Shown: positions 31,512 to 55,677 of the stretch, piece after piece
Numbering within the stretch: position 1 is the stretch's first letter
Layout: each line of letters begins with the position of its first letter
Assembly: GCA_963720595.1 (NCBI GenBank)
Contig: CAVRFY010000005.1
Coordinates: 1,615,733-1,679,732 of the forward strand
Direction: 5' to 3'
DNA from: an uncultured Actinomycetota bacterium
Lineage (GTDB): Bacteria; Actinomycetota; Actinomycetes; Streptosporangiales; Streptosporangiaceae
Length of the DNA stretch: 64,000 bases
Program-made: the position numbers and the translations under genes
Notes under the pieces: generated by a model
Told to the model about the DNA's origin: nothing
Databases searched by the model: none
Seen by the model: only the letters and a program-made list of their open reading frames with translations

Positions 31512-31584
31512 GCGCCGCTAGCTCAATTGGCAGAGCAGCGGACTCTTAATCCGCGGGTTCGGGGTTCAAGTCCCTGGCGGCGCA
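31512..31584 (+). tRNA. tRNA-Lys (anticodon CTT)
   Basis: 73-nt cloverleaf. Acceptor GCGCCGC/GCGGCGC, anticodon stem GCGGA/TCCGC with loop CT-CTT-AA, T-arm CGGGG-TTCAAGT-CCCTG, discriminator A. No encoded CCA. Confidence 0.9.
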
Positions 31585-31720
31585 CCCGTCCTGACCTAGC
31601 CTTATACCGATGTTGGCTGCCTTTGCGCGGCCCGCTCCTGGGCCAAGTTTGCTCCACCTTTGCTCGTCAGTCCTGGCGGATCTGGGTGATCTGCGCGGCG
31701 ACGCGCTGTGCCGCTGGTGC

Positions 31721-31777: not shown

Positions 31778-33010
31778 TCAATTGACCACGATGCCGGCGG
31801 GTTTGGCCCCAGCAGGCAGCGAGGTTGGGGAGGTGGCAAGCTCGGTCAGGTTGCCGCCGTTTACCGCAAACGCGCCGACGACGCCGATCTTGCTCTCGTC
31901 GACGTACAGGAAGCGGCCGTCGGGGCTGAGGCGTGCGTCGACGGCGCCGACCCCGCCGGTGTCGTTGACGGGGGTGCTGCCCAGCAAGGTCAGCGTGCCG
32001 CCAGCGGCGATCTGGTAACGGGAGATCTCGCCGGATCCGGTGTTCACGGTGAACAGGAACTTGCCGTCATGAGTGATCTCCACCCAGCACGGCGCGGTCT
32101 GGTCATCGGCGAACGGGGAGCCCGCGAGCGCTGTCAGCGTGCCATTGAAGGAGTCGCTGAACGCGGAGACGGTTCCCGTGCCAGCGCCGACGTTGTGCGC
32201 GTTGGACACGAAAAGCTGGCTGGGATTGGTCGGCCGGAACTCGCTGCCGAACGGGCCTAGGCCCTGGGCCGGGAAGGGCGAGCCCGGCGCAGCGGTCAGC
32301 CGCCCGCTGAAGCCGACAGCGAAGCTGTCGATCTGGGAGGTCCCTACCTCGGTGCCGACCAGTTTGGTGCCGGTGCTGTTGAACAGCACGTCAGCAGGTG
32401 CGGCGCCGGCGGCCAGCGACACGGTCGACCGCGGGATCGGACGCAATTGGCCGAAGAATCCGAGCCGGAAGCCGGTGTAGTTGCTGCCGCCGGTACCGGA
32501 GTTGGCCACGTACACGAGTTTGCCGTGGACGGCGATGCTGTCCGGCAGGACGCCGCCGGAGGAGACGAGGCCACCGGGCACGCGGCTGATCGAGCCGTCG
32601 CCGTGGATCCGCAGCACCGAGATCTGGTTGCTGCCCGCGTCAACGGCGAGCAGGAACTGGCCGTCCGGAGTGATCTGGATCGCGCCTTGGGAGGCCAGCC
32701 CGGCGCCGGTCCCAGCCCCGCCAGCCGCGAACGGGGACCCGGCCTCGGGGGTCAGCGAGCCGTCCGCGTGCCGGTCAAACGCCCCGATCGTGTTGGTCCC
32801 GGCAGTGTTGTCGTTGACATAAACGTGCCCGACCACCGGTGAGGATACGACTGATGCCGAGGCTGCAGTGGGCACCGCCACTGCCGCAGCGGCCGCCAGG
32901 CCGAGGATCAGCGCACCCAATCCGCCGTGCATCCGTGCATGCCTTCTTTCTGGTTGGACATCGCGGGCCCGTACGGCTGCTTGCTTCCGCCGACGTGACT
33001 CGAAGTTCAT
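31778..33010 (-). CDS. Secreted 7-bladed beta-propeller lactonase family protein
   Basis: ORF 31778..33244, ATG 33010. Signal-like LILGLAAAAAVAVPTAASA, then repeated blade motifs (YVANSGTGGSN, LFVSNAHN, FLYVDES). Confidence 0.7.
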   Translation of the reverse strand: MNFESRRRKQAAVRARDVQPERRHARMHGGLGALILGLAAAAAVAVPTAASASVVSSPVVGHVYVNDNTAGTNTIGAFDRHADGSLTPEAGSPFAAGGAGTGAGLASQGAIQITPDGQFLLAVDAGSNQISVLRIHGDGSISRVPGGLVSSGGVLPDSIAVHGKLVYVANSGTGGSNYTGFRLGFFGQLRPIPRSTVSLAAGAAPADVLFNSTGTKLVGTEVGTSQIDSFAVGFSGRLTAAPGSPFPAQGLGPFGSEFRPTNPSQLFVSNAHNVGAGTGTVSAFSDSFNGTLTALAGSPFADDQTAPCWVEITHDGKFLFTVNTGSGEISRYQIAAGGTLTLLGSTPVNDTGGVGAVDARLSPDGRFLYVDESKIGVVGAFAVNGGNLTELATSPTSLPAGAKPAGIVVN

Positions 33011-33143
33011 CTGCTGCCCTTTCCTCAGGCGTAGCCGGAATGGCCGGGGCCACAGCGGCGCCGCTGTTTGGTTACCTTTGGTTGGCGTTCGGGGGCAGCC
33101 ACGTCTTACGTAGGGAAGCAAAAGAACTGCCGTCGGGCGCCGC

Positions 33144-33239
33144 GGGTGCCGAGTCGTGCGGGTGCCGAGTCGTCCGGGTGCCGACCAGCCCGCCCGTCGT
33201 GCACTCCGGCCAGCCCGCGCGTCGCGCACTCCGGCCAGC
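33144..33239. repeat. Tandem repeats: 16 bp x3 then 24 bp x2
   Basis: gggtgccgagtcgtgc / gggtgccgagtcgtcc / gggtgccgaccagccc, then two ...gtcg[tc]gcactccggccagc copies. Confidence 0.85.
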
Positions 33240-33544
33240 AGCACCTCGACGGCCAGCTACCCATGGTGCTCGCCAGAGTGCCGGCCGATGTCTACGCCAG
33301 GGAACACGACATCCGGCCCGTCGACGTGGCGACTGTCAAGTAACGGAACCCGTTGACGAAGTCCTGCCATGGCGACGGATTGGACCGACAACGCGGTCGG
33401 CGGCTTGCCGGCCTGGGTGCCGAGACAAATGATCGGCTGTCCGGCGTCGAAGGCCGCGATGGCATGGAAGATCGGGGCGCTGGAACGCGGATGCCGCCTG
33501 CCGGGCTGGTTTCGCCGGCAGGAGCCGCAGCGGCGAGCCGGTTA

Positions 33545-33995: not shown

Positions 33996-34090
33996 GCCTG
34001 TTCATCTGGCCTTTTCTCTCCTTTTGTTCTCCTGGTGGGTTAATCACAGTTGGCTGTGCCGGGCTGGATCCCATGCATGCTGGAGGAAAA

Positions 34091-35356
34091 ATGCGCAAAC
34101 GTCCCCTGCTGGCGCTCGTTGCGGCTGGGCTGCTTCTATCGGCGGTTCCTGCCGGATCCGCGCTCGCCTCGCCCGGAGGCGGCCGCGGCCCGCTGACGGT
34201 CGCGGTCTACGGTGATTCACCGTACGGCGTAGCCGCCTATGCGCCGGGCGGCCAATCTGGTGACACCGCGGAACTGCAGAAGAGCCCCGCATTCATCAGC
34301 ACGATCAACGCCAATCCGTCGATCAGCGAGGTGATCCATGTCGGCGACATCCACTCAGGCAAGGACTTCTGCACCGAGGCGTACGACAACCAGATCGCGT
34401 CGCTCTGGCAGCAGTACAGCAAGCCGCTTGTCTACACCCCTGGGGACAACGAGTGGTCCGACTGTCACAAGGCCACGAGCCTGACCAAGCCAGGTGAGGG
34501 CGGCGGGTTCTACGCTGCCGGCGTCCTGAACTACATCGGAACGTCGGGCCTGACGACCGACCCGTCGATGTGCGCCGACTACCAGTGCGGGAACCCGCTC
34601 GACAACCTCGCGAAGGTCCGCCAGCTGTTCTTCTCCCAGCCTGGCCACACGCTCGGCAGCGGAGCCTTGAACGTGGTGTCACAGGCCACCGCCTATGACC
34701 CGAACCACCCGACGGACGCACAGTATGTCGAGAACGTGATGTGGTCGCAGCGGGACATCGTGTTTGTGACCATCAACGTCCCCGGCGGGTCGAACAATGA
34801 CGCCGACATCTGGTATGGCGCTCCTTCCGCGTCGCAGGCACAGATCGACGAGCGGGCCAACCGGACGGGCGCGGACATTCGCTGGCTCGACGCGGCGTTC
34901 GCCCGGGCAGCCGACCAGCACGCCAAGGGCGTCGTCATCGTCACCCAGGCGGATATGTGGGACCTCGACGGCAAGACGCCGGCTCACCTGACCAACTACG
35001 AGCCGATCATCAGCGATATAGCGTCGCGGACGACTGCCTACGCCCGCCCGGTACTGCTGTTCAACGGCGACTCGCACCTCTACCGTTCCGACAACCCGCT
35101 CTCGCCGACCGCACCGTGCGTCGGTGAGACCGATCCCGCCACCGGGATGTCGGTGTGCGCACACGACCCGAACAGCACCGCGTGGAGCGAGCACCCCTTC
35201 TACAACGTGCCCAACTTCCACCGCGTCGTCGTGCATGGCAGCACATTCCCGCTCGAATGGTTGAAGCTGACCATTGACCCCGACGCCCACTACAAGACCA
35301 CCGCCACGACCTTCGGCCCATTCGCCTGGCAACGAATGCCGCAGCCTCAGCTGTAA
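34091..35356 (+). CDS. Secreted calcineurin-like metallophosphoesterase
   Basis: Signal peptide MRKRPLLALVAAGLLLSAVPAGSALA. Motifs VYGDSPYG, HVGDIHSG, TPGDNEWSDC. Confidence 0.7.
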   Translation: MRKRPLLALVAAGLLLSAVPAGSALASPGGGRGPLTVAVYGDSPYGVAAYAPGGQSGDTAELQKSPAFISTINANPSISEVIHVGDIHSGKDFCTEAYDNQIASLWQQYSKPLVYTPGDNEWSDCHKATSLTKPGEGGGFYAAGVLNYIGTSGLTTDPSMCADYQCGNPLDNLAKVRQLFFSQPGHTLGSGALNVVSQATAYDPNHPTDAQYVENVMWSQRDIVFVTINVPGGSNNDADIWYGAPSASQAQIDERANRTGADIRWLDAAFARAADQHAKGVVIVTQADMWDLDGKTPAHLTNYEPIISDIASRTTAYARPVLLFNGDSHLYRSDNPLSPTAPCVGETDPATGMSVCAHDPNSTAWSEHPFYNVPNFHRVVVHGSTFPLEWLKLTIDPDAHYKTTATTFGPFAWQRMPQPQL

Positions 35357-35400: not shown

Positions 35401-35553
35401 TTCGCCAGACGAGGGATCCCGCCGACCGCCGGCTGGATGGTCGAGCAGGTACTCAAGGCACACCCGGCTGTGCTCGACGCTCTGGTGGCCGGCGTGCCTG
35501 ACGAGCGGTTCGGCGAGCGCGTCGCCGCCGAGGTCGAACTGCGCCCAGGCGCC
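35401..35553 (+). pseudogene. C-terminal fragment of an AMP-dependent acyl-CoA synthetase/ligase
   Basis: VEQVLKAHPAVLDALVAGVPDERFGERVAAEVELRPGA is the conserved extreme C-terminal block of adenylate-forming enzymes. No upstream body. Confidence 0.6.
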
Positions 35554-35559
35554 GGGCGC

Positions 35560-35651
35560 GCGCCCGTATGCCGGGCCAGCTGCACCAGGATCGTGCCAAC
35601 GCCGCCGCTAGCGCCCAGCACGAGAACCGTCTGCCCGGCCCGCACCTCCAA
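35560..35651 (-). pseudogene. Fragment of an MDR-family (quinone oxidoreductase-like) dehydrogenase
   Basis: EVRAGQTVLVLGASGGVGTILVQLARHTGA is the NAD(P)-binding Rossmann segment. It abuts the ligase fragment. Confidence 0.5.
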
Positions 35652-35723
35652 ACGCCATGAAAGCCGGCAGGGACTGGCGCCAGATCGAAGCTCCTAGGAC
35701 GGACGGTGATGACAACCTTGGCC

Positions 35724-39656: not shown

Positions 39657-40074
39657 CCCGAACGTCCAGGCGATCACCGAGACGACCGCCTCGTCCGGGC
39701 GGCCCAGCGCGCCGAACCCGAGCCCTTGTCGTAGAGCGCCTTGGCCACTTGCCCGCGCAGGGGCAGCTCGCGGCTGCACCGACCGGTCAACGAGCCGGTC
39801 GAGCAGCTGGGCGGCGTGACCGAACGCTACCAGGCGACCGGCCGGATACTGGACTATTGCCTGCACACCACCCACGCTGCCGCCTGCATCGTGAACCCGG
39901 CCGCGGGCCGCGGGCGGCCGAGCCGACACCGCCTGGGATCACCTTCACCAGGCCATGACCTGTTCGGCCAGCTAGCAGACGTCGTCAAACTAGGCCGCGG
40001 GCCGGTTCGATATATCAGCAACGGTCATAGTTCCGGGACGGGCGGTTACGGGATTTCGATGGTATCGTTTTCCC

Positions 40075-40311
40075 ATGGAAGCAGTCATCGATCAGGCCGG
40101 CCGGGTTGTGCTGCCCAAGCCCATCCGCGATGCGCTTGGCCTGCTGCCCGGCACCAAGGTTGACATCACGGCATATGGCGCCGGCGCGCAGCTCCTGCCT
40201 GCTGGCCGGACCGCGCGCTTGGTCGAGGAGGACGGCGTGCTCGTCGCGGACGCCGAGACCCCGGTCGATGACGACACGGTATTCGCCCTCATCGATGCGG
40301 GCCGCAAGTGA
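40075..40311 (+). CDS. vapB: AbrB/SpoVT-fold antitoxin (VapB-type)
   Basis: [25 protein letters not shown] is the swapped-hairpin AbrB motif. 78 aa. The stop overlaps the toxin start. Confidence 0.8.
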
Positions 40312-40715
40312 CGGTCGCGGTCGACACTAGCGTCGCCATACCGCTGCTTGTCCGCTCACATCACCATCATGCTGGCGTGGTGCGATGGTGGGGCGGGCAG
40401 GAGGTCGCGCTCAGCGGTCACGCCCTCGCCGAGACGTACTCGGTGCTCACCAGGCTGCCAGGCGACGCGCGGCTGGCGCCAGCCGACGCCGCCCGGCTGC
40501 TGAATGAGCGCTTCGCTGCGCCGTTCATGCTGAGCAGGCCGCTTGCCCGTAAGCTGCCGGAAACTCTCAGCCGCTTGGGCATCGCAGGTGGTGCAGTTTA
40601 CGATGCGCTGGTGGCGCTGGCCGCCAAAGAGCACGGGGCCGCCCTCGCAACTCGGGATGCGCGGGCACGCGGCACCTACGATGCCGTCGGCGTCACGGTA
40701 ATCGCGGTCACCTGA
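40308..40715 (+). CDS. vapC: PIN-domain toxin (VapC-type)
   Basis: N-terminal VDTSVAI (first acidic residue), [10 protein letters not shown], and [26 protein letters not shown] overlap with vapB. Confidence 0.8.
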
Positions 40716-40843
40716 TCGCAGGGGGCATCGTCGCGGACCGACGTCCGTCCGCAATCCGACGATGCGTGCCTCGCACTCACGGCGGTTCACTACAGTCTCG
40801 CTAGAAGAATGGCGGCTTCCGCGGATACGGGAGGACCAAGGCC

Positions 40844-43213
40844 ATGGCGAGGGCGGCGCATGACCGGCTGGCCAGGAAGTTGCGCGGCGACACGCAGACC
40901 GCGTTCAGCGTGGAACTGACGGCGAGCACGGGCGACTTGAGCCTGGAGGTCGAGGGTTTCGGGCAGGTCAAGTTCCCGGTGACCCCTGCGAAGGCCCGCA
41001 AGCTGCTCGGTCTCGGTCAGCCGGCCCGGTTCGGCCGTGGCGAACAGACGCTGACCGACCCGGACGTTCGGGACACGTGGGAGATCCCGAAGCGCCTCGT
41101 CCGCGCCGAGTGGAGCGACGCTATGCCGGAGGTCATCCTCGCGACGGTGAAAGAGGAGCTAGGACCCCCGAATGCTGCCGAGCTGGCTGCCGATCTTCAT
41201 TCCCTCCTGGTCTACGAGCCAGACCAGTTCTTCCTCGCCCACCAGGACTCCGAGATAGACGACTCGATGATCGGCACCCTGGTGGTGACCCTGCCGTCCA
41301 GTTACACCGGCGGCGAGCTGATGGTGGGGCTGGGCGGGGAGTGGAAGACCTACCGAGGGTCGAGGACAGCGCTGTCACTGGTCGCCTTCTACGCCGACTG
41401 CCGGCACGAGGTTCTCAAGGTGCAGTCGGGCTATCGCATCACGCTCACCTACAACCTGCTCCTGCGCGGCGACACCCGCCGTCCGCAGGGCGATGAGGGA
41501 ATCGTCGCCGAACTGGCGGACCTCCTCCGCGAGCACTTCAGCACGCCTGTCTCCCGCTATTACGGCGGACCCGCAGCGGACCCGCCGAACCGGCTCGTCT
41601 ACCTCCTCGATCACGAGTACACGCCCCGCGGGCTGAACTGGCGACGCCTAAAAGGCGCGGACGCGAGCAGGGTGACGCTGCTGCGGGCCGCCGCGGAAAA
41701 GGCAGACTGTGAAGCCATCCTCGCGCTCGCCGACATCAGGACAACACATAGCGCGTTCCCGGCGGACGAAGCCTACGGATCCTGGCGGCGCTGGGACGAT
41801 GCCGACGACGAAGACGCCTACGACGAAGACGAGGACGACGGCAACGCCACCCAGTACGAGATTCAGGACCTGATCGACTCCGAGATTATCCTCACCCACT
41901 GGACCGGGCCGGATGGCAGCCGGCTAGAAGAGATGTCGCTGTTCGTGGGCGGCAACGAGGTCTGCGCGTCTACCCCGTCCGGCGACCTCACGCCGGACGC
42001 CCAGCAGTACGAGGGCTACATGGGCAACTGGGGCAACACGCTGGACCGCTGGTACCACCGGGCGGCGGTCGCCGTCTGGCCCCGTGATCAGGCCTTTGCG
42101 AACCGCGCAGAAACCTCGCCGGCCTGGGCTCTTGATGAGGTCACCGCGATGGCGTCATCGGGCGATGTACCAGGCGCTCAGGCCGCCACGGCGACACTCG
42201 CGCCGTTCTGGGACGGCGCGGTGCGCGGCCGGACTCCGGAGGCAAGTGCCAGGACCACCGGGCTGTTCGGCCCGGCGCTCAGGGCGGCGGACGCCGTGGT
42301 GGACGCGAGCGCCGCGGCGATGCTGCTGCGCCCGTTCCGCGTCGAGAATCTGACAGATGCGCATGTGACCTCGTTCACGAAGATCGTCGGCGGCTACGGC
42401 CATCAGTGGACGGCGGACCTGCTGCGAACATGGTTCGGCGGGGATCAGCCAGCCTCGGCATACGGCGGCGGCCGGGAGCGACCGGAGTGGGTGGCGGACT
42501 TCCTGCCAGGCGTGTGCGCGGGACTGCACGCCGGGGGCAGTGCTGGCGCGGTGGCCGCGCAATGGCTGCTTGACCTCGCGTGGGAATGGATCAGCAAGGA
42601 CATCCGCAGCGGGCTCGGCTTGTCGTTGCCAAGCAATCGCGACAAGCAACTCGGCGACCTGGGTCAACCGCTCGCCGCGGTGCTCACGGCAGCCGCCGCG
42701 ATCGGGGAGACCAGCACGCGGGACATAGTTTCGGGATACATCCGGGAACAGGGCGACCCGGTGACCACGCTAGAGCTGTCTGCGCTGCGCGCCGCTGACC
42801 AGATGCCCCGGGATGGCGCACGCGGCGACGGCAGCTTCGGCGACCTGGCCGCCGACTGTGCGGCGCGGCTCCGCGCCCGGCTAGCCCGCCCGCAGCGCGC
42901 GTCGGGTGACTGGTCGATCGAACTGCCTGCGGGGGGCTGCACATGTGACCTGTGCGGCACCCTCGGCACGTTCCTGGAGCACAGGAGCCGACGCACCTTC
43001 GAGTGGCCACTTGCCAAGGATGGCCGGCACCTTGTGCACGCCAGGATCGACGGTGCCGAACTGCCCGTCAGCCACTTGACCAGGCGGCAAGGCCGCCCCT
43101 ACACGCTCGTCCTGAACAAGACCGACGCGCTCTTCTCCCGCGACTGGGAGGCGCGGATCAAGGATGAAGCGGATCTGAAGTGGCTCACGGCAAACGGGAC
43201 TTCCGCCGCTTGA
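40844..43213 (+). CDS. Large (789 aa) protein: N-terminal prolyl-hydroxylase-type 2OG-Fe(II) dioxygenase domain plus ~550 aa of unknown function
   Basis: FFLAHQDSE (HxD), TGGELMV, ADCRHEVLKVQSGYRITLTYNL (distal His, Arg). Acidic linker DDADDEDAYDEDEDDG. C-terminal Cys/His cluster GGCTCDLCGTLGTFLEH...HLVH. RBS GGGAGG precedes the ATG. Confidence 0.75.
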   Translation: MARAAHDRLARKLRGDTQTAFSVELTASTGDLSLEVEGFGQVKFPVTPAKARKLLGLGQPARFGRGEQTLTDPDVRDTWEIPKRLVRAEWSDAMPEVILATVKEELGPPNAAELAADLHSLLVYEPDQFFLAHQDSEIDDSMIGTLVVTLPSSYTGGELMVGLGGEWKTYRGSRTALSLVAFYADCRHEVLKVQSGYRITLTYNLLLRGDTRRPQGDEGIVAELADLLREHFSTPVSRYYGGPAADPPNRLVYLLDHEYTPRGLNWRRLKGADASRVTLLRAAAEKADCEAILALADIRTTHSAFPADEAYGSWRRWDDADDEDAYDEDEDDGNATQYEIQDLIDSEIILTHWTGPDGSRLEEMSLFVGGNEVCASTPSGDLTPDAQQYEGYMGNWGNTLDRWYHRAAVAVWPRDQAFANRAETSPAWALDEVTAMASSGDVPGAQAATATLAPFWDGAVRGRTPEASARTTGLFGPALRAADAVVDASAAAMLLRPFRVENLTDAHVTSFTKIVGGYGHQWTADLLRTWFGGDQPASAYGGGRERPEWVADFLPGVCAGLHAGGSAGAVAAQWLLDLAWEWISKDIRSGLGLSLPSNRDKQLGDLGQPLAAVLTAAAAIGETSTRDIVSGYIREQGDPVTTLELSALRAADQMPRDGARGDGSFGDLAADCAARLRARLARPQRASGDWSIELPAGGCTCDLCGTLGTFLEHRSRRTFEWPLAKDGRHLVHARIDGAELPVSHLTRRQGRPYTLVLNKTDALFSRDWEARIKDEADLKWLTANGTSAA

Positions 43214-43350
43214 TCAGGGCAATCAGCGAACGGTCGGCACGGCCAGGTCACCGACGATGAGCAGATGGCCGACGAGCTCGACCTGCTCGCCAAGCTCGAG
43301 AATGCGCATCCGAAGAAGATTCGCCAGACCAGTGTGTCCGCTCTGACGGT

Positions 43351-43554
43351 TCACTCAGCGAAGGGGTTGAGAACCTGGACTCCGGCGAGCTCAAAGTCCT
43401 TGACGTTGCGGGTGACCACGGTCATGCCGTGCACCCGCGCCGTTGCCGCAATGAGCGCGCCGATCACTGGGAGGGGCTGCGCGCACTGCTGACGACCCCA
43501 GGCAGCGGCGATCGGGAGGGTGACCGGGAGAACCCGATCTAGTAGCTCTGGCCT
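43351..43554 (-). pseudogene. C-terminal half of a second PIN-domain toxin (N-terminal half missing)
   Basis: [17 protein letters not shown] and PLPVIGALIAATARVHGMTVVTRNVKDFELAGVQVLNPF form a typical VapC/FitB C-terminus. The upstream part of ORF 43351..43752 is the antisense of other debris. Confidence 0.65.
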
Positions 43555-43622
43555 GCCGTGCAGGCGGTTGGCTCTGGCCTGCCGTGCAGGTGGTTGGCTC
43601 TGGCCTACCTTCAGGCGGTACC
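43545..43622. repeat. 26-bp tandem repeat x3
   Basis: gctctggcctgccgtgcaggcggttg / gctctggcctgccgtgcaggtggttg / gctctggcctaccttcaggcggtacc. Confidence 0.9.
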
Positions 43623-43724
43623 GTTTACGATTCGCTCGTGGCGCTGGCAGCCAAAGAGCACGGGGCCGCCCTCGCCACCCGGGATGCGCTAGCACGCGGC
43701 ACCTACGACGCGACCGGTGGCTGA
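43623..43724 (+). pseudogene. 3'-terminal remnant of a vapC paralogue
   Basis: Translates to [33 protein letters not shown](stop). 80 of 88 nt are identical to 40596-40683 of the intact vapC, by my manual alignment. Confidence 0.7.
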
Positions 43725-51524: not shown

Positions 51525-52484
51525 GTGCGAGTGCGGTACGGCGTTGTCCTGTTCACCAGCGACCGCGGGATCACCCCTGCCCGCGCGGCGCAGGCCGCCG
51601 AGGTCGCGGGCTTCGACTCCTTCTACGTCCCCGAGCACACGCACATTCCGGTCAGGCGCGAGGCACCGCACCCGCGAACCGGAACCGCCGAACTGCCCGA
51701 CGACCGTTATCTGCGCACGCTGGACCCTTGGGTGGCGCTGAGCACGGCCGCCGCCGTCACCTCGACGATCCGGCTCGGCACGGCCGTGGCGCTGCCCGCC
51801 GAGCACGACCCGATCGCGCTCGCCAAGACGGTCGCCTCGCTCGACCACCTGACCGGCGGCCGGGTCACGCTCGGCGTGGGGTTCGGCTGGAACGTGGACG
51901 AGCTGACCGACCACGGCGTGCCGGCGGCCAGGCGGCGCACGGTCGTGCGCGAGTACCTGGAGGCCATGCAGGTGCTGTGGTCGCCGGAACCGGCCGGCTA
52001 TGACGGCGAGTTCGTCAGGTTCGGCGCGTCCTGGGCGTGGCCGAAACCGGTGCAGCTCCCGCGGGTGCCGATCCTGCTCGGCGCCGCCGGCACCGAGCAG
52101 ACGTTCGCCTGGATCGCACGATCGGCCGACGGGTGGCTGACCACGCCCGGCGAGGATGGCCTGGAGGGCAAGGCAGCGATGCTGCTGCGTGCCTGGCGGG
52201 ACGCGGGCCGTCCCGGCGCGCCCGAGATAGCCGCGCTGGCCGGCAAACCCGACCGCGACACGCTCGCACGCTGGCGCGACATCGGCGTCACCGAGGCCCT
52301 GTTCGGCATGCCGGACCGGGCCGAGGACGAGGTGATCGGCTATCTGGGCAGACTGGCCGGGAAGCTCGGCCTGCCTGCGCGCCCCGGCCAGCCTGACGCC
52401 ACGGAGCCCGCGCACCCCGGCGAGCCCGCGCACCCCGGCGAGCCTGCGCGCCCCGGCCAGCCTGACGCCACGGAGCCCGCATGA
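51525..52484 (+). CDS. LLM-class (luciferase-like) F420-dependent oxidoreductase with repeat-bearing C-terminus
   Basis: GFDSFYVPEHTHIP and LDHLTGGRVTLGVGFGW. Confidence 0.8.
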   Translation: MRVRYGVVLFTSDRGITPARAAQAAEVAGFDSFYVPEHTHIPVRREAPHPRTGTAELPDDRYLRTLDPWVALSTAAAVTSTIRLGTAVALPAEHDPIALAKTVASLDHLTGGRVTLGVGFGWNVDELTDHGVPAARRRTVVREYLEAMQVLWSPEPAGYDGEFVRFGASWAWPKPVQLPRVPILLGAAGTEQTFAWIARSADGWLTTPGEDGLEGKAAMLLRAWRDAGRPGAPEIAALAGKPDRDTLARWRDIGVTEALFGMPDRAEDEVIGYLGRLAGKLGLPARPGQPDATEPAHPGEPAHPGEPARPGQPDATEPA

Positions 52485-53014
52485 TCATGGATGTCAATCT
52501 CGCGGACCTGTGCGCCGCGGTCGCGGCCGCGGTGCCCGAGCGCTGCGCGCTGGTCTGCGACGGCCAGCGGCTCAGCTACCGCGAGCTGACCTCGCGCAGC
52601 GAGCAGGTGGCGCAGCACCTGGTGACGGCGGGGATCGGTGCTGACGAGACCGTCGGGCTCTATCTGGCCAACTCGGTCGCCTACGTCGAGTCGCTGCTCG
52701 GCTGCATGGTCGCCCGCGCGATCCCGGTGAACATCAACTACCGCTACACCGGCCCGGAGCTCGCCCACCTCTTCGGCGGCGCGGACCTGGCTGCGCTGAT
52801 CGTGGACGCCGAGTACGCCGGCCTCGCGGCCGAGGTAGCGGCGTCCGCCCCGGGCCTGCGCCATGTCCTGGTGGTCGGCGGCGACCGCGCCGCCGCGCCG
52901 TCCCTCGCACCGACTCCTGCGGCATTCCCCGCCGCCGTCACCGTGCTGGACTACGCGACGGCCATCGGCGCGATGCCCGCGGTGCGGCCCGACCTGGAAC
53001 GCGGGGCGACCTGA
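52481..53014 (+). pseudogene. N-terminal ~175 aa of an AMP-dependent acyl-CoA synthetase (truncated before the AMP-binding motif)
   Basis: ALVCDGQRLSYRELTSRSEQVAQHL, VGLYLANSVAYVESLLGCMVARAIPVNINYRY. It ends at RPDLERGAT(stop), where the YTGGTTG-type motif should follow. Confidence 0.7.
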
Positions 53015-55565: not shown

Positions 55566-55638
55566 GCGCCGCTAGCTCAATTGGCAGAGCAGCGGACTCT
55601 TAATCCGCGGGTTCGGGGTTCAAGTCCCTGGCGGCGCA
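55566..55638 (+). tRNA. tRNA-Lys (anticodon CTT), identical to the copy at 31512-31584
   Basis: The same 73-nt sequence, read base by base. Confidence 0.9.
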
Positions 55639-55677
55639 CTCGCTCGCCCGTACCTCTGACTATCTAGCGCAACGGCG

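Follow-up and report, generated by a model that had tools for sequence, protein, structure and literature searches.

The window analysed here is a 64,000-nucleotide stretch of contig CAVRFY010000005.1 (positions 1,615,733 to 1,679,732, forward strand) from an uncultured member of the Streptosporangiaceae (Actinomycetota). It carries a vapBC toxin–antitoxin (TA) pair followed on the same strand by a gene for a 789-aa protein with an N-terminal Fe(II)/2-oxoglutarate (2OG) oxygenase domain. The initial annotation had proposed that the three genes form one conflict or stress module. Our comparison with related loci did not bear this out and suggests, on balance, two independent units lying side by side, namely a vapBC cassette and a stand-alone hydroxylase of the accessory genome. 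The features of the block are given below with their positions in the window.

40006–40016, plus strand: distal TTCGATATATC motif upstream of vapB, a putative second VapB site
40030–40074, plus strand: candidate vapBC promoter/operator with an extended −10 element (TG at 40060–40061, TATCGT at 40063–40068) ending 6 nt before the ATG
40075–40311, plus strand: vapB, AbrB/SpoVT-type antitoxin, 78 aa (PF04014, E = 1.1e-6; TIGR01439 (AbrB), E = 4e-10)
40308–40715, plus strand: vapC, PIN-domain toxin, 135 aa (PF01850 (PIN), E = 1.5e-15)
40738–40843, plus strand: conserved upstream region of the oxygenase gene, comprising an imperfect palindrome, GGTTCA, a −10-like cTACAGT (TACAGT at 40791–40796), a leader and a GGGAGG ribosome-binding site (RBS)
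40829–40834, plus strand: the GGGAGG RBS, 9 nt before the oxygenase ATG
40844–43213, plus strand: the large oxygenase open reading frame (ORF), 789 aa, with its ATG at 40844 and a third-codon-position GC content (GC3) of 0.84

The distribution of vapBC was evaluated across ~100 related loci (L numbers). An orthologous pair lies directly upstream of the oxygenase gene in 10 of them (L001, L002, L010, L012/L013, L021, L057, L058, L073 and the window). No vapBC orthologue was found by tblastn in the other ~90, some of which hold too little upstream DNA to judge, and the adjacent genes in the loci without vapBC are unrelated (HxlR, MazF-like, Fic/Phd, AbiEi, helicases and unknowns). In a neighbour-joining tree, the vapBC-linked oxygenase genes fall into three separate clades. 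The conserved co-occurrence of all components that characterises tripartite TA and multi-gene defence systems was not found among these loci. Moreover, alignment of the 145 nt before the oxygenase start codon showed that the upstream region is conserved in 64 loci whatever gene precedes it, indicating that the oxygenase has its own expression signals. The imperfect palindrome in this region (40738–40790, consensus CCGCGGAAGCGT-GGCTCGCGGCTTACGGCGG) lies just upstream of TACAGT and is present in 63 related loci; the window copy is partly degenerate (CCGACGATGCGT...ACTCACGGCGG). It could be a candidate operator for some regulator.

The boundaries of DNA homology were also compared. The vapBC–oxygenase block is shared from ~40030 (39982 in L010) to ~43247, with outer flanks that differ in each contig, and in loci without vapBC the homology starts at 40744–40777. 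L021 and L001 are 99–100% identical at the nucleotide level over vapB, vapC, the intergenic region and oxygenase codons 1–210 (window 40030–41473), and beyond codon 210 (window 41474–43213) the identity drops to 90, 83 and 85%. This step marks a recombination breakpoint inside the oxygenase gene. The vapBC cassette therefore moves from allele to allele through homologous recombination, one arm of which is the 5′ third of the oxygenase gene. L031 and L055, sisters of L021, share its downstream genes, and the upstream gene in L031 is MazF-like instead of vapBC.

The vapBC pair itself is intact, as initially described. The vapC acidic residues D6, E42, D98 and D117 are all present in the translation, and the genes overlap by 4 bp in a GTGA (40308–40311) that combines the vapC GTG start (40308–40310) with the vapB TGA stop (40309–40311). 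A PIN toxin with its acidic residues, preceded by a small, translationally coupled DNA-binding antitoxin, is what defines type II VapBC systems. Like the PIN and AbrB/SpoVT-type pairs of Mycobacterium tuberculosis, the pair shows the antitoxin–toxin order, the 4-bp start/stop overlap, four PIN acidic residues, an AbrB-type N-terminal DNA-binding domain and a promoter with a conserved inverted repeat. Nothing within the pair departs from known VapBC systems, and it is a routine, already known kind of system; what is peculiar is its recurrent site ~130 bp upstream of one oxygenase family and the spread of this cassette by recombination along with the 5′ end of the oxygenase gene.

The 45 nt before vapB are 97–100% identical across all vapBC loci, including L057, in which vapB itself is at 81%. 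The extended −10 element ends 6 nt before the vapB ATG, which implies a leaderless mRNA; transcription from this promoter is therefore probably leaderless, judging by its position. An inverted repeat, CGAT-GGT-ATCG (40057–40067), overlaps the candidate −10 element and would allow autoregulation. The initial annotation had pointed to two copies of a weak repeat as a possible autoregulatory site. Both copies are present, the proximal one (40055–40067) being invariant in 8 of 8 aligned vapBC loci, although the arrangement is better read as an extended −10 plus a small inverted repeat. The distal motif (40006–40016) is retained in 5 of the 8 with variable spacing: it is kept as GGTTCGATATA(T/C)CAGC in the window, L002, L010 and L012, carries one more change in L021, and is missing in L001, L073 and L057. 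The proposed pattern occurs once in the window against 0.16 expected, a count reached in 15 of 100 shuffles, and is thus not beyond chance; support for the repeats comes from their conservation among the loci.

The oxygenase ORF lies 128 bp downstream of vapC (gap 40716–40843) and has its own GGGAGG RBS, in agreement with the initial annotation. Its homologues (thousands, full-length) begin at the same Met, which identifies the ORF as a genuine gene rather than an artefact of high GC content. A word-indexed search returned >2,800 homologues, of which the best 120 are full-length (778–802 aa plus one 922-aa call) and 75–89% identical; those among the 120 that bear an organism name are Streptosporangiaceae metagenome-assembled genomes. 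When 1.84 billion cluster representatives (clusters at 50% identity) were scanned exhaustively with HMMER, 7,667 clusters matched at E<=1e-3, of which 1,601 reached E<=1e-30, and the full-length layout of ~750–830 aa holds down to ~34% identity. Named members include Actinomycetota and Pseudomonadota, plasmid copies among them. In tblastn searches against plasmids, full-length copies were found on Streptomyces linear plasmids and N-terminal-half matches on plasmids of Bradyrhizobium, Microvirga, Acidiphilium, Skermanella and Thiodictyon. An hhalign comparison of the Acidiphilium homologue (762 aa) with the family profile covered 704 columns (E = 1.4e-68), and this homologue retains the C-terminal Cys motif. 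No homologue was found in 50,697 phage records, and IMG/VR gave only one match. We found no paper on the oxygenase family or on a link between vapBC and a dioxygenase.

The architecture of the protein was examined in AlphaFold2 (AF2) models built with a 115-sequence alignment. The whole protein was modelled with a mean predicted local distance difference test (pLDDT) score of 86.4 and a predicted template-modelling (pTM) score of 0.75, and residues 215–789 alone with 89.7 and 0.85. Four domains, in an order shared by the family, were delimited as follows.

40844–41473, plus strand: aa 1–210, N-terminal extension and double-stranded beta-helix (DSBH) catalytic domain (PF13640, E = 4.5e-7, aa 121–204)
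41495–42082, plus strand: aa 218–413, conserved beta-rich domain of unknown fold (AF2 pLDDT mostly 80–95)
41774–41845, plus strand: aa 311–334, disordered acidic loop within the beta-rich domain (pLDDT<50)
42083–42898, plus strand: aa 414–685, all-alpha solenoid (DSSP on the AF2 model)
42899–43213, plus strand: aa 686–789, C-terminal Cys/His alpha/beta domain with invariant or near-invariant columns

The N-terminal domain was confirmed as a prolyl-hydroxylase-type dioxygenase. PF13640 is the sole Pfam match of the ORF, and the residues first noticed as HQD, CRHEV and YRITL, namely H133 and D135 (H133-Q-D135), H188 and R198, are invariant among the 115 aligned homologues. The domain thus has what defines enzymes of the prolyl-4-hydroxylase (P4H)/PHD type, a DSBH fold (in the AF2 model) with an HxD...H iron triad and a basic 2OG-binding residue. 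Foldseek matched the aa 1–210 fold to 6n1f (E = 2.3e-6) and the PPHD–EF-Tu complex 4iw3 (1.2e-5), followed by PHD2, Dictyostelium PhyA and PiuC; the probability was 1.00 for PPHD, PHD2 and 6n1f, and E ranged from 2e-6 to 1e-4, 4iw3/4j25 included.

The beta-rich domain contains three very long strands and invariant Y259, K270, D273, G394, N395, G397, W403, Y404 and R406. The acidic stretch that was initially taken as a linker between domains is real (the stretch proper spans aa 317–334), but it belongs to a disordered loop inserted in a folded domain. The solenoid gave only weak TPR/ARM/HEAT-like Foldseek matches (E>=0.01). In the C-terminal domain, the Cys residues of the previously noted Cys/His cluster are C699/C701/C704; C701, C704, H732 and H744 are invariant in the 115 homologues and C699 and H730 nearly so, and R728, R748 and K759 are also conserved. 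This domain probably binds Zn, as its Cys and His residues suggest. Mean pairwise identity is 0.69 in the DSBH core, 0.61–0.68 in the beta-rich domain, 0.58 in the C-terminal domain and 0.38–0.48 in the solenoid, the DSBH core being the most conserved part and the solenoid the most variable.

The ~450 aa in which no motif had been recognised extend to ~575 aa. Pfam searches of 58 members found PF13640 alone, with zero matches within residues 215–789, and sequence and profile searches of PDB sequences found no solved structure for this region at E<0.1 and nothing credible beyond 6n1f. Foldseek with the dedicated C-terminal model against PDB and BFVD (viral) gave generic solenoids only and no match at E<=1e-3, so that no well-characterised family was matched. 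A second, degenerate DSBH as in Tpa1/OGFOD1 was rejected on an hhalign probability of 0.1% between the beta-rich and DSBH domains. A SWIM finger was likewise rejected for the Cys cluster, which gave no PF04434 match and has a CxCxxC...HxH spacing that is not canonical. Candidates for other architectures, with the C-terminal module alone or with other N-terminal domains (P0235, P0226 and P0245), appear to be gene calls that are frameshifted or cut short.

Comparison with known oxygenases placed the catalytic domain but not the whole protein. PPHD of Pseudomonas, which hydroxylates EF-Tu (4iw3/4j25), and PHD2/EGLN1 share the DSBH, the HxD...H triad, the 2OG-binding Arg on the last strands and PF13640, and are among the top Foldseek matches (E 1e-5 to 1e-4; target-normalised TM score 0.45–0.56). 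However, their catalytic domains are single domains of ~200–230 aa that are 13–19% identical to the window protein, which has a further 575 aa without a structural relative. To our knowledge, bacterial protein hydroxylases are few, and PPHD is the main characterised example. The best structural match, 6n1f, a structural-genomics entry for a 2OG-Fe(II) oxygenase family protein of Burkholderia pseudomallei, is also the best PDB profile match (E = 0.032, profile positions 32–211, including the N-terminal extension). It differs in being 237 aa long without the C-terminal module and gives no functional lead; as far as we know, its function is uncharacterised.

The YbiX/PiuC PKHD hydroxylases (COG3128) have their Pfam family in common with the window protein and show weak structural similarity to it (3dkq, 9qn4). 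In contrast, the NCBIfam PRK05467 models give the window protein 17.3 and 12 bits, below their respective cut-offs (143 and 180), and YbiX/PiuC is a single domain of ~225 aa, compared with 789 aa here. The YbiX label that the Joint Genome Institute (JGI) gives to many members is therefore a domain-level name and does not denote orthology. The ribosomal prolyl hydroxylases Tpa1, Ofd1 and OGFOD1 combine a catalytic DSBH with a second, non-catalytic DSBH. In their structures, a P4H-type DSBH is likewise followed by a second beta-rich domain, but the second domain of the window protein is unlike its first, and no Tpa1 or OGFOD1 chain was among the listed Foldseek matches. The enzyme class is known, and the architecture of the oxygenase, which includes two domains without a recognised fold, is a new variation on it; nothing here is categorically new.

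The surroundings of the homologues are variable across phyla, rich in TA, abortive infection (Abi) and mobile genes, and show no conserved housekeeping operon. Gene order is almost never alike even around orthologues 70–78% identical to each other, and no conserved partner gene was found among the compared loci. Nearby TA or Abi genes include PIN+RHH and DUF5753/DUF6879 (L004-9), a PIN pair (L011), MNT/HepT (L014), UPF0175 and RHH (L016), AbiEi/AbiEii and Fic (L017), VapC/RHH, RelE and MazE (Acidiphilium), two PIN pairs, ParDE and HepT (L102), MazE-PIN and PIN_12 (L103), FitA-like RHH and an RHS toxin (L104), UPF0175/DUF3368 (Thiodictyon), and Fic/Phd, MazF, Gp49/HigB-like, MNT and Uma2 in metagenome loci.

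Of 16 distinct contexts, 12 include a TA or Abi gene and 8 a PIN-type toxin at a distance of up to ~3.5 kb; for the PIN-type toxins, ~15% would be expected from the distal frequency (binomial p = 0.001). A census by Pfam family of 150 de-replicated protein families located up to 2.5 kb away put PIN first (5), ahead of FitA, Fic, PemK, AbiEii and AbiEi at 2 each; in the distal set, 150 families from 3.5 kb outwards, PIN reached 3 and the rest were metabolic or housekeeping. Counting Pfam families with at least two members, TA/Abi matches numbered 15 proximally and 3 distally (Fisher p = 0.006).

Genes related to nucleic acids recur as well, each in a minority of contexts. An AEP-TOTE primase + SF2 helicase protein (~800–860 aa) adjoins the oxygenase gene in three arrangements, downstream, upstream and immediately upstream (L012/L013, 6821–9241 in L012; L035/L036, 2060–4573 in L036; L069). 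SNF2(DUF3670)+SWIM genes lie directly upstream of the homologue on a Bradyrhizobium plasmid (L019, 2753–6367), a gene for an 89-aa WGR protein directly upstream of that on an Acidiphilium plasmid (L018, 6360–6629), and RtcB beside that of Thiodictyon (L106, 4227–5423). HNH-DUF222 and Uma2 nucleases are also among the neighbours. In addition, a helical protein of ~160–230 aa (cluster c13) without a Pfam or NCBIfam match adjoins the oxygenase in two arrangements and two clades (L011, 7257–7748; upstream on the same strand in L028, L029 and L090; downstream on the opposite strand in L038 and L040), and could be a partner.

Several of these observations weigh against two independent units and bear on the possibility that vapB, vapC and the oxygenase gene form one co-transcribed conflict or stress module, with the oxygenase as a sensor, a regulator or a third partner of the PIN toxin. 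The three genes lie on one strand, and no terminator was detected in the 128-bp gap, so that read-through co-transcription from vapBC may occur; a hairpin at 40725–40765 was rejected as a terminator (z = −0.75; 3′ arm not conserved in L001, L010 and L021). The 3.2-kb vapB–vapC–oxygenase block is 86–92% identical at the nucleotide level in contigs with different outer flanks, and in L057/L058 vapBC and the oxygenase have co-diverged (vapC ~80%, oxygenase ~72%), indicating that their linkage is not merely recent. PIN-type pairs also recur beside distant homologues (L102, L103, Acidiphilium and Thiodictyon), which could stem from a functional link instead of co-residence in islands. PIN alone was not enriched in the census (5 vs. 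3 of 150, p = 0.72), in which single-member families are hidden from both lists, the contexts are not fully independent phylogenetically and the regions are TA-rich overall. Nevertheless, a three-gene module would be hard to reconcile with the rarity and polyphyly of the vapBC linkage and with a promoter-like region and RBS that are conserved with or without vapBC. The MazE/AbrB–PIN pairs of L102 and L103 do lie upstream of the distant (~45%) homologues on the same strand, but an opposite-strand gene separates each pair from the oxygenase. Moreover, PADLOC-DB v2 models gave zero matches for vapB, vapC or the PIN half downstream, and the sole match of the oxygenase was PDLC01653, a generic cas-associated '2OG' domain model (E = 2.3e-8, aa 121–203), so that no named defence system of this database was matched. 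We therefore regard a three-gene module as very unlikely.

In the reading of two independent units, vapBC would act as a compact, intact type II TA cassette of ~700 bp, selfish or stabilising, transcribed without a leader from its extended −10 element and autoregulated through the overlapping inverted repeat. It would have spread among oxygenase alleles by homologous recombination, taking the 5′ third of the gene along. The oxygenase would be transcribed from its own promoter without any need for vapBC, and is predicted to be a catalytically competent Fe(II)/2OG hydroxylase of the prolyl-4-hydroxylase/PHD clade. Its C-terminal module (beta-rich, solenoid and Cys/His domains) most probably docks a macromolecular substrate, which the DSBH would then hydroxylate in an O2-, Fe- and 2OG-dependent reaction. 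By analogy with PPHD/EF-Tu or PHD2/HIF, this substrate is most likely a protein, although the WGR, SNF2+SWIM, AEP-helicase and RtcB neighbours would fit a nucleic acid equally well. The family is part of the flexible genome, being found on plasmids and in variable regions rich in TA genes, and this location makes a role in stress or inter-genomic conflict more likely than a housekeeping role. One form of such a role, which we consider unlikely but worth stating, is that the oxygenase is by itself a conflict effector (defence, abortive infection or plasmid competition) in defence/TA islands. The extreme variability of neighbourhoods among close orthologues, the local enrichment of TA/Abi families and the carriage on plasmids of Streptomyces, Bradyrhizobium, Acidiphilium, Microvirga and Thiodictyon would suit such an effector. 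Further points in its favour are that EF-Tu is what the closest bacterial relative with both a solved structure and a known substrate hydroxylates (4iw3), that the solenoid evolves faster than any other domain, and that the recombination breakpoint swaps the C-terminal two-thirds between alleles. It is conceivable, with similarly low probability, that the variable solenoid senses a cue from an invader or from stress and that the hydroxylase modifies a core host factor (e.g. a translation factor) or an invader protein. The protein might then, at the same long odds, be the founding member of a widespread single-gene conflict system in which the beta-rich, Cys/His and solenoid domains recognise the invader or stress signal; that its DSBH hydroxylates a core factor (e.g. 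EF-Tu or a ribosomal protein) or an invader protein is just as doubtful. If true, such a system would account for the movement of the gene as one unit across plasmids and TA/defence islands in Actinomycetota and Proteobacteria. However, the protein has no NTPase or other switch domain typical of sensor–effector immune proteins, its architecture is constant with no alternative effector or sensor combinations seen, no named PADLOC system was matched, and homologues are absent from the phage records and limited to one in IMG/VR. Guilt by association is also weak in TA-rich genomes, where PIN is a joint commonest family distally too. A direct action on DNA or RNA (base or backbone oxidation or repair), with the Cys/His and beta-rich domains binding the polynucleotide, seems improbable to a still greater degree: the recurrent WGR, SNF2(DUF3670)+SWIM, AEP-TOTE, RtcB, HNH-DUF222 and Uma2 neighbours and the invariant Cys/His cluster with conserved Arg and Lys would fit it, but no such neighbour occurs in more than a few contexts, the sequence of the C-terminal domain shows no net basic character, and the DSBH is closest to protein prolyl hydroxylases and not to AlkB or TET/JBP (a Tet_JBP match in just 1 of 58 members, E = 0.023).

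The value of the locus lies in the oxygenase, whose large conserved family keeps the same four domains all the way from Streptosporangiaceae to plasmids of Bradyrhizobium and Thiodictyon. Its ~575 confidently modelled residues without a relative among solved structures or Pfam make it a good structural and biochemical target, and the family could reveal a new post-translational or nucleic-acid modification in stress or conflict; its interest would be modest if it is an ordinary accessory enzyme. Furthermore, the locus illustrates cleanly how a TA cassette spreads in nature through homologous recombination in which a neighbouring gene serves as homology arm.

Downstream of the oxygenase gene, the opposite-strand PIN half and the remnant of a vapC paralogue reported initially were both found.

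43351–~43545, minus strand: C-terminal half of another PIN toxin, 5′-truncated (PF01850, E = 1e-3, profile positions 65–112)
43545–43609, plus strand: 26-bp tandem repeat GCTCTGGCCTGCCGTGCAGGCGGTTG, ~2.5 copies, right where the two PIN remnants meet
43612–43724, plus strand: 3′ remnant of a second vapC allele, 5′-truncated (similarity to the resident vapC)

The vapC remnant (100 nt, 43612–43711) is 89% identical to resident 40585–40684 and 92–94% identical to the vapC of L001, L002, L010, L012, L021 and L073, and is thus closer to the related contigs' vapC than to the resident copy. The remnants stand head-to-head and face apart, with PIN(−) ending at ~43545 and vapC′(+) beginning at ~43600. 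They are specific to the window: DNA homology with the related contigs stops at ~43247, and the PIN half was not found downstream of the oxygenase gene in L001, L010, L012 or L021. Since both remnants are 5′-truncated and head-to-head over the 26-bp repeat, a single deletion across two divergent TA operons would explain them both, the repeat being a putative scar of deletion or slippage. The repeated gain and destruction of toxin genes that the initial annotation had read from these remnants therefore goes beyond the evidence, as one deletion suffices and the debris is window-specific. The 26-bp repeat partly resembles the vapC sequence just 5′ of 40585.

GC content is flat across the locus (0.65–0.71), which is bracketed by two complete, identical tRNA-Lys(CTT) genes at 31512–31586 and 55566–55639, 24,054 bp apart. 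A tRNA-flanked integrative island was rejected: no integrase was found among the 20 ORFs scanned between and just outside the tRNA genes, these ORFs being metabolic genes or fragments, and the repeat is the whole tRNA gene and not part of one, identity being limited to the gene itself (77 nt, 99%). Transposon-like termini were rejected as well, as no convincing inverted or direct repeats flank the oxygenase gene or the vapBC–oxygenase block. An Rfam search found the two tRNAs only and no other known RNA element. The tRNA-bracketed segment also holds gene fragments at 35437–35697 (+), 52481–53014 (+) and 31778–33244 (−), one ORF among them having a partial lactonase match only. A C-terminal piece of an AMP-binding gene lies upstream of an N-terminal piece on the same strand, and the order of the fragments suggests past rearrangement or duplication and decay. 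A 427-aa ORF at 34073–35356 (+) has good coding statistics (GC3 0.84) without a Pfam match. Finally, short GC-rich (near-)tandem repeats resembling CCGCGCACCCCGGCGAGC, with spacings of 51 and 18 nt, occupy 52357–52480, at the 3′ end of a luciferase-like monooxygenase ORF (51525–52484).

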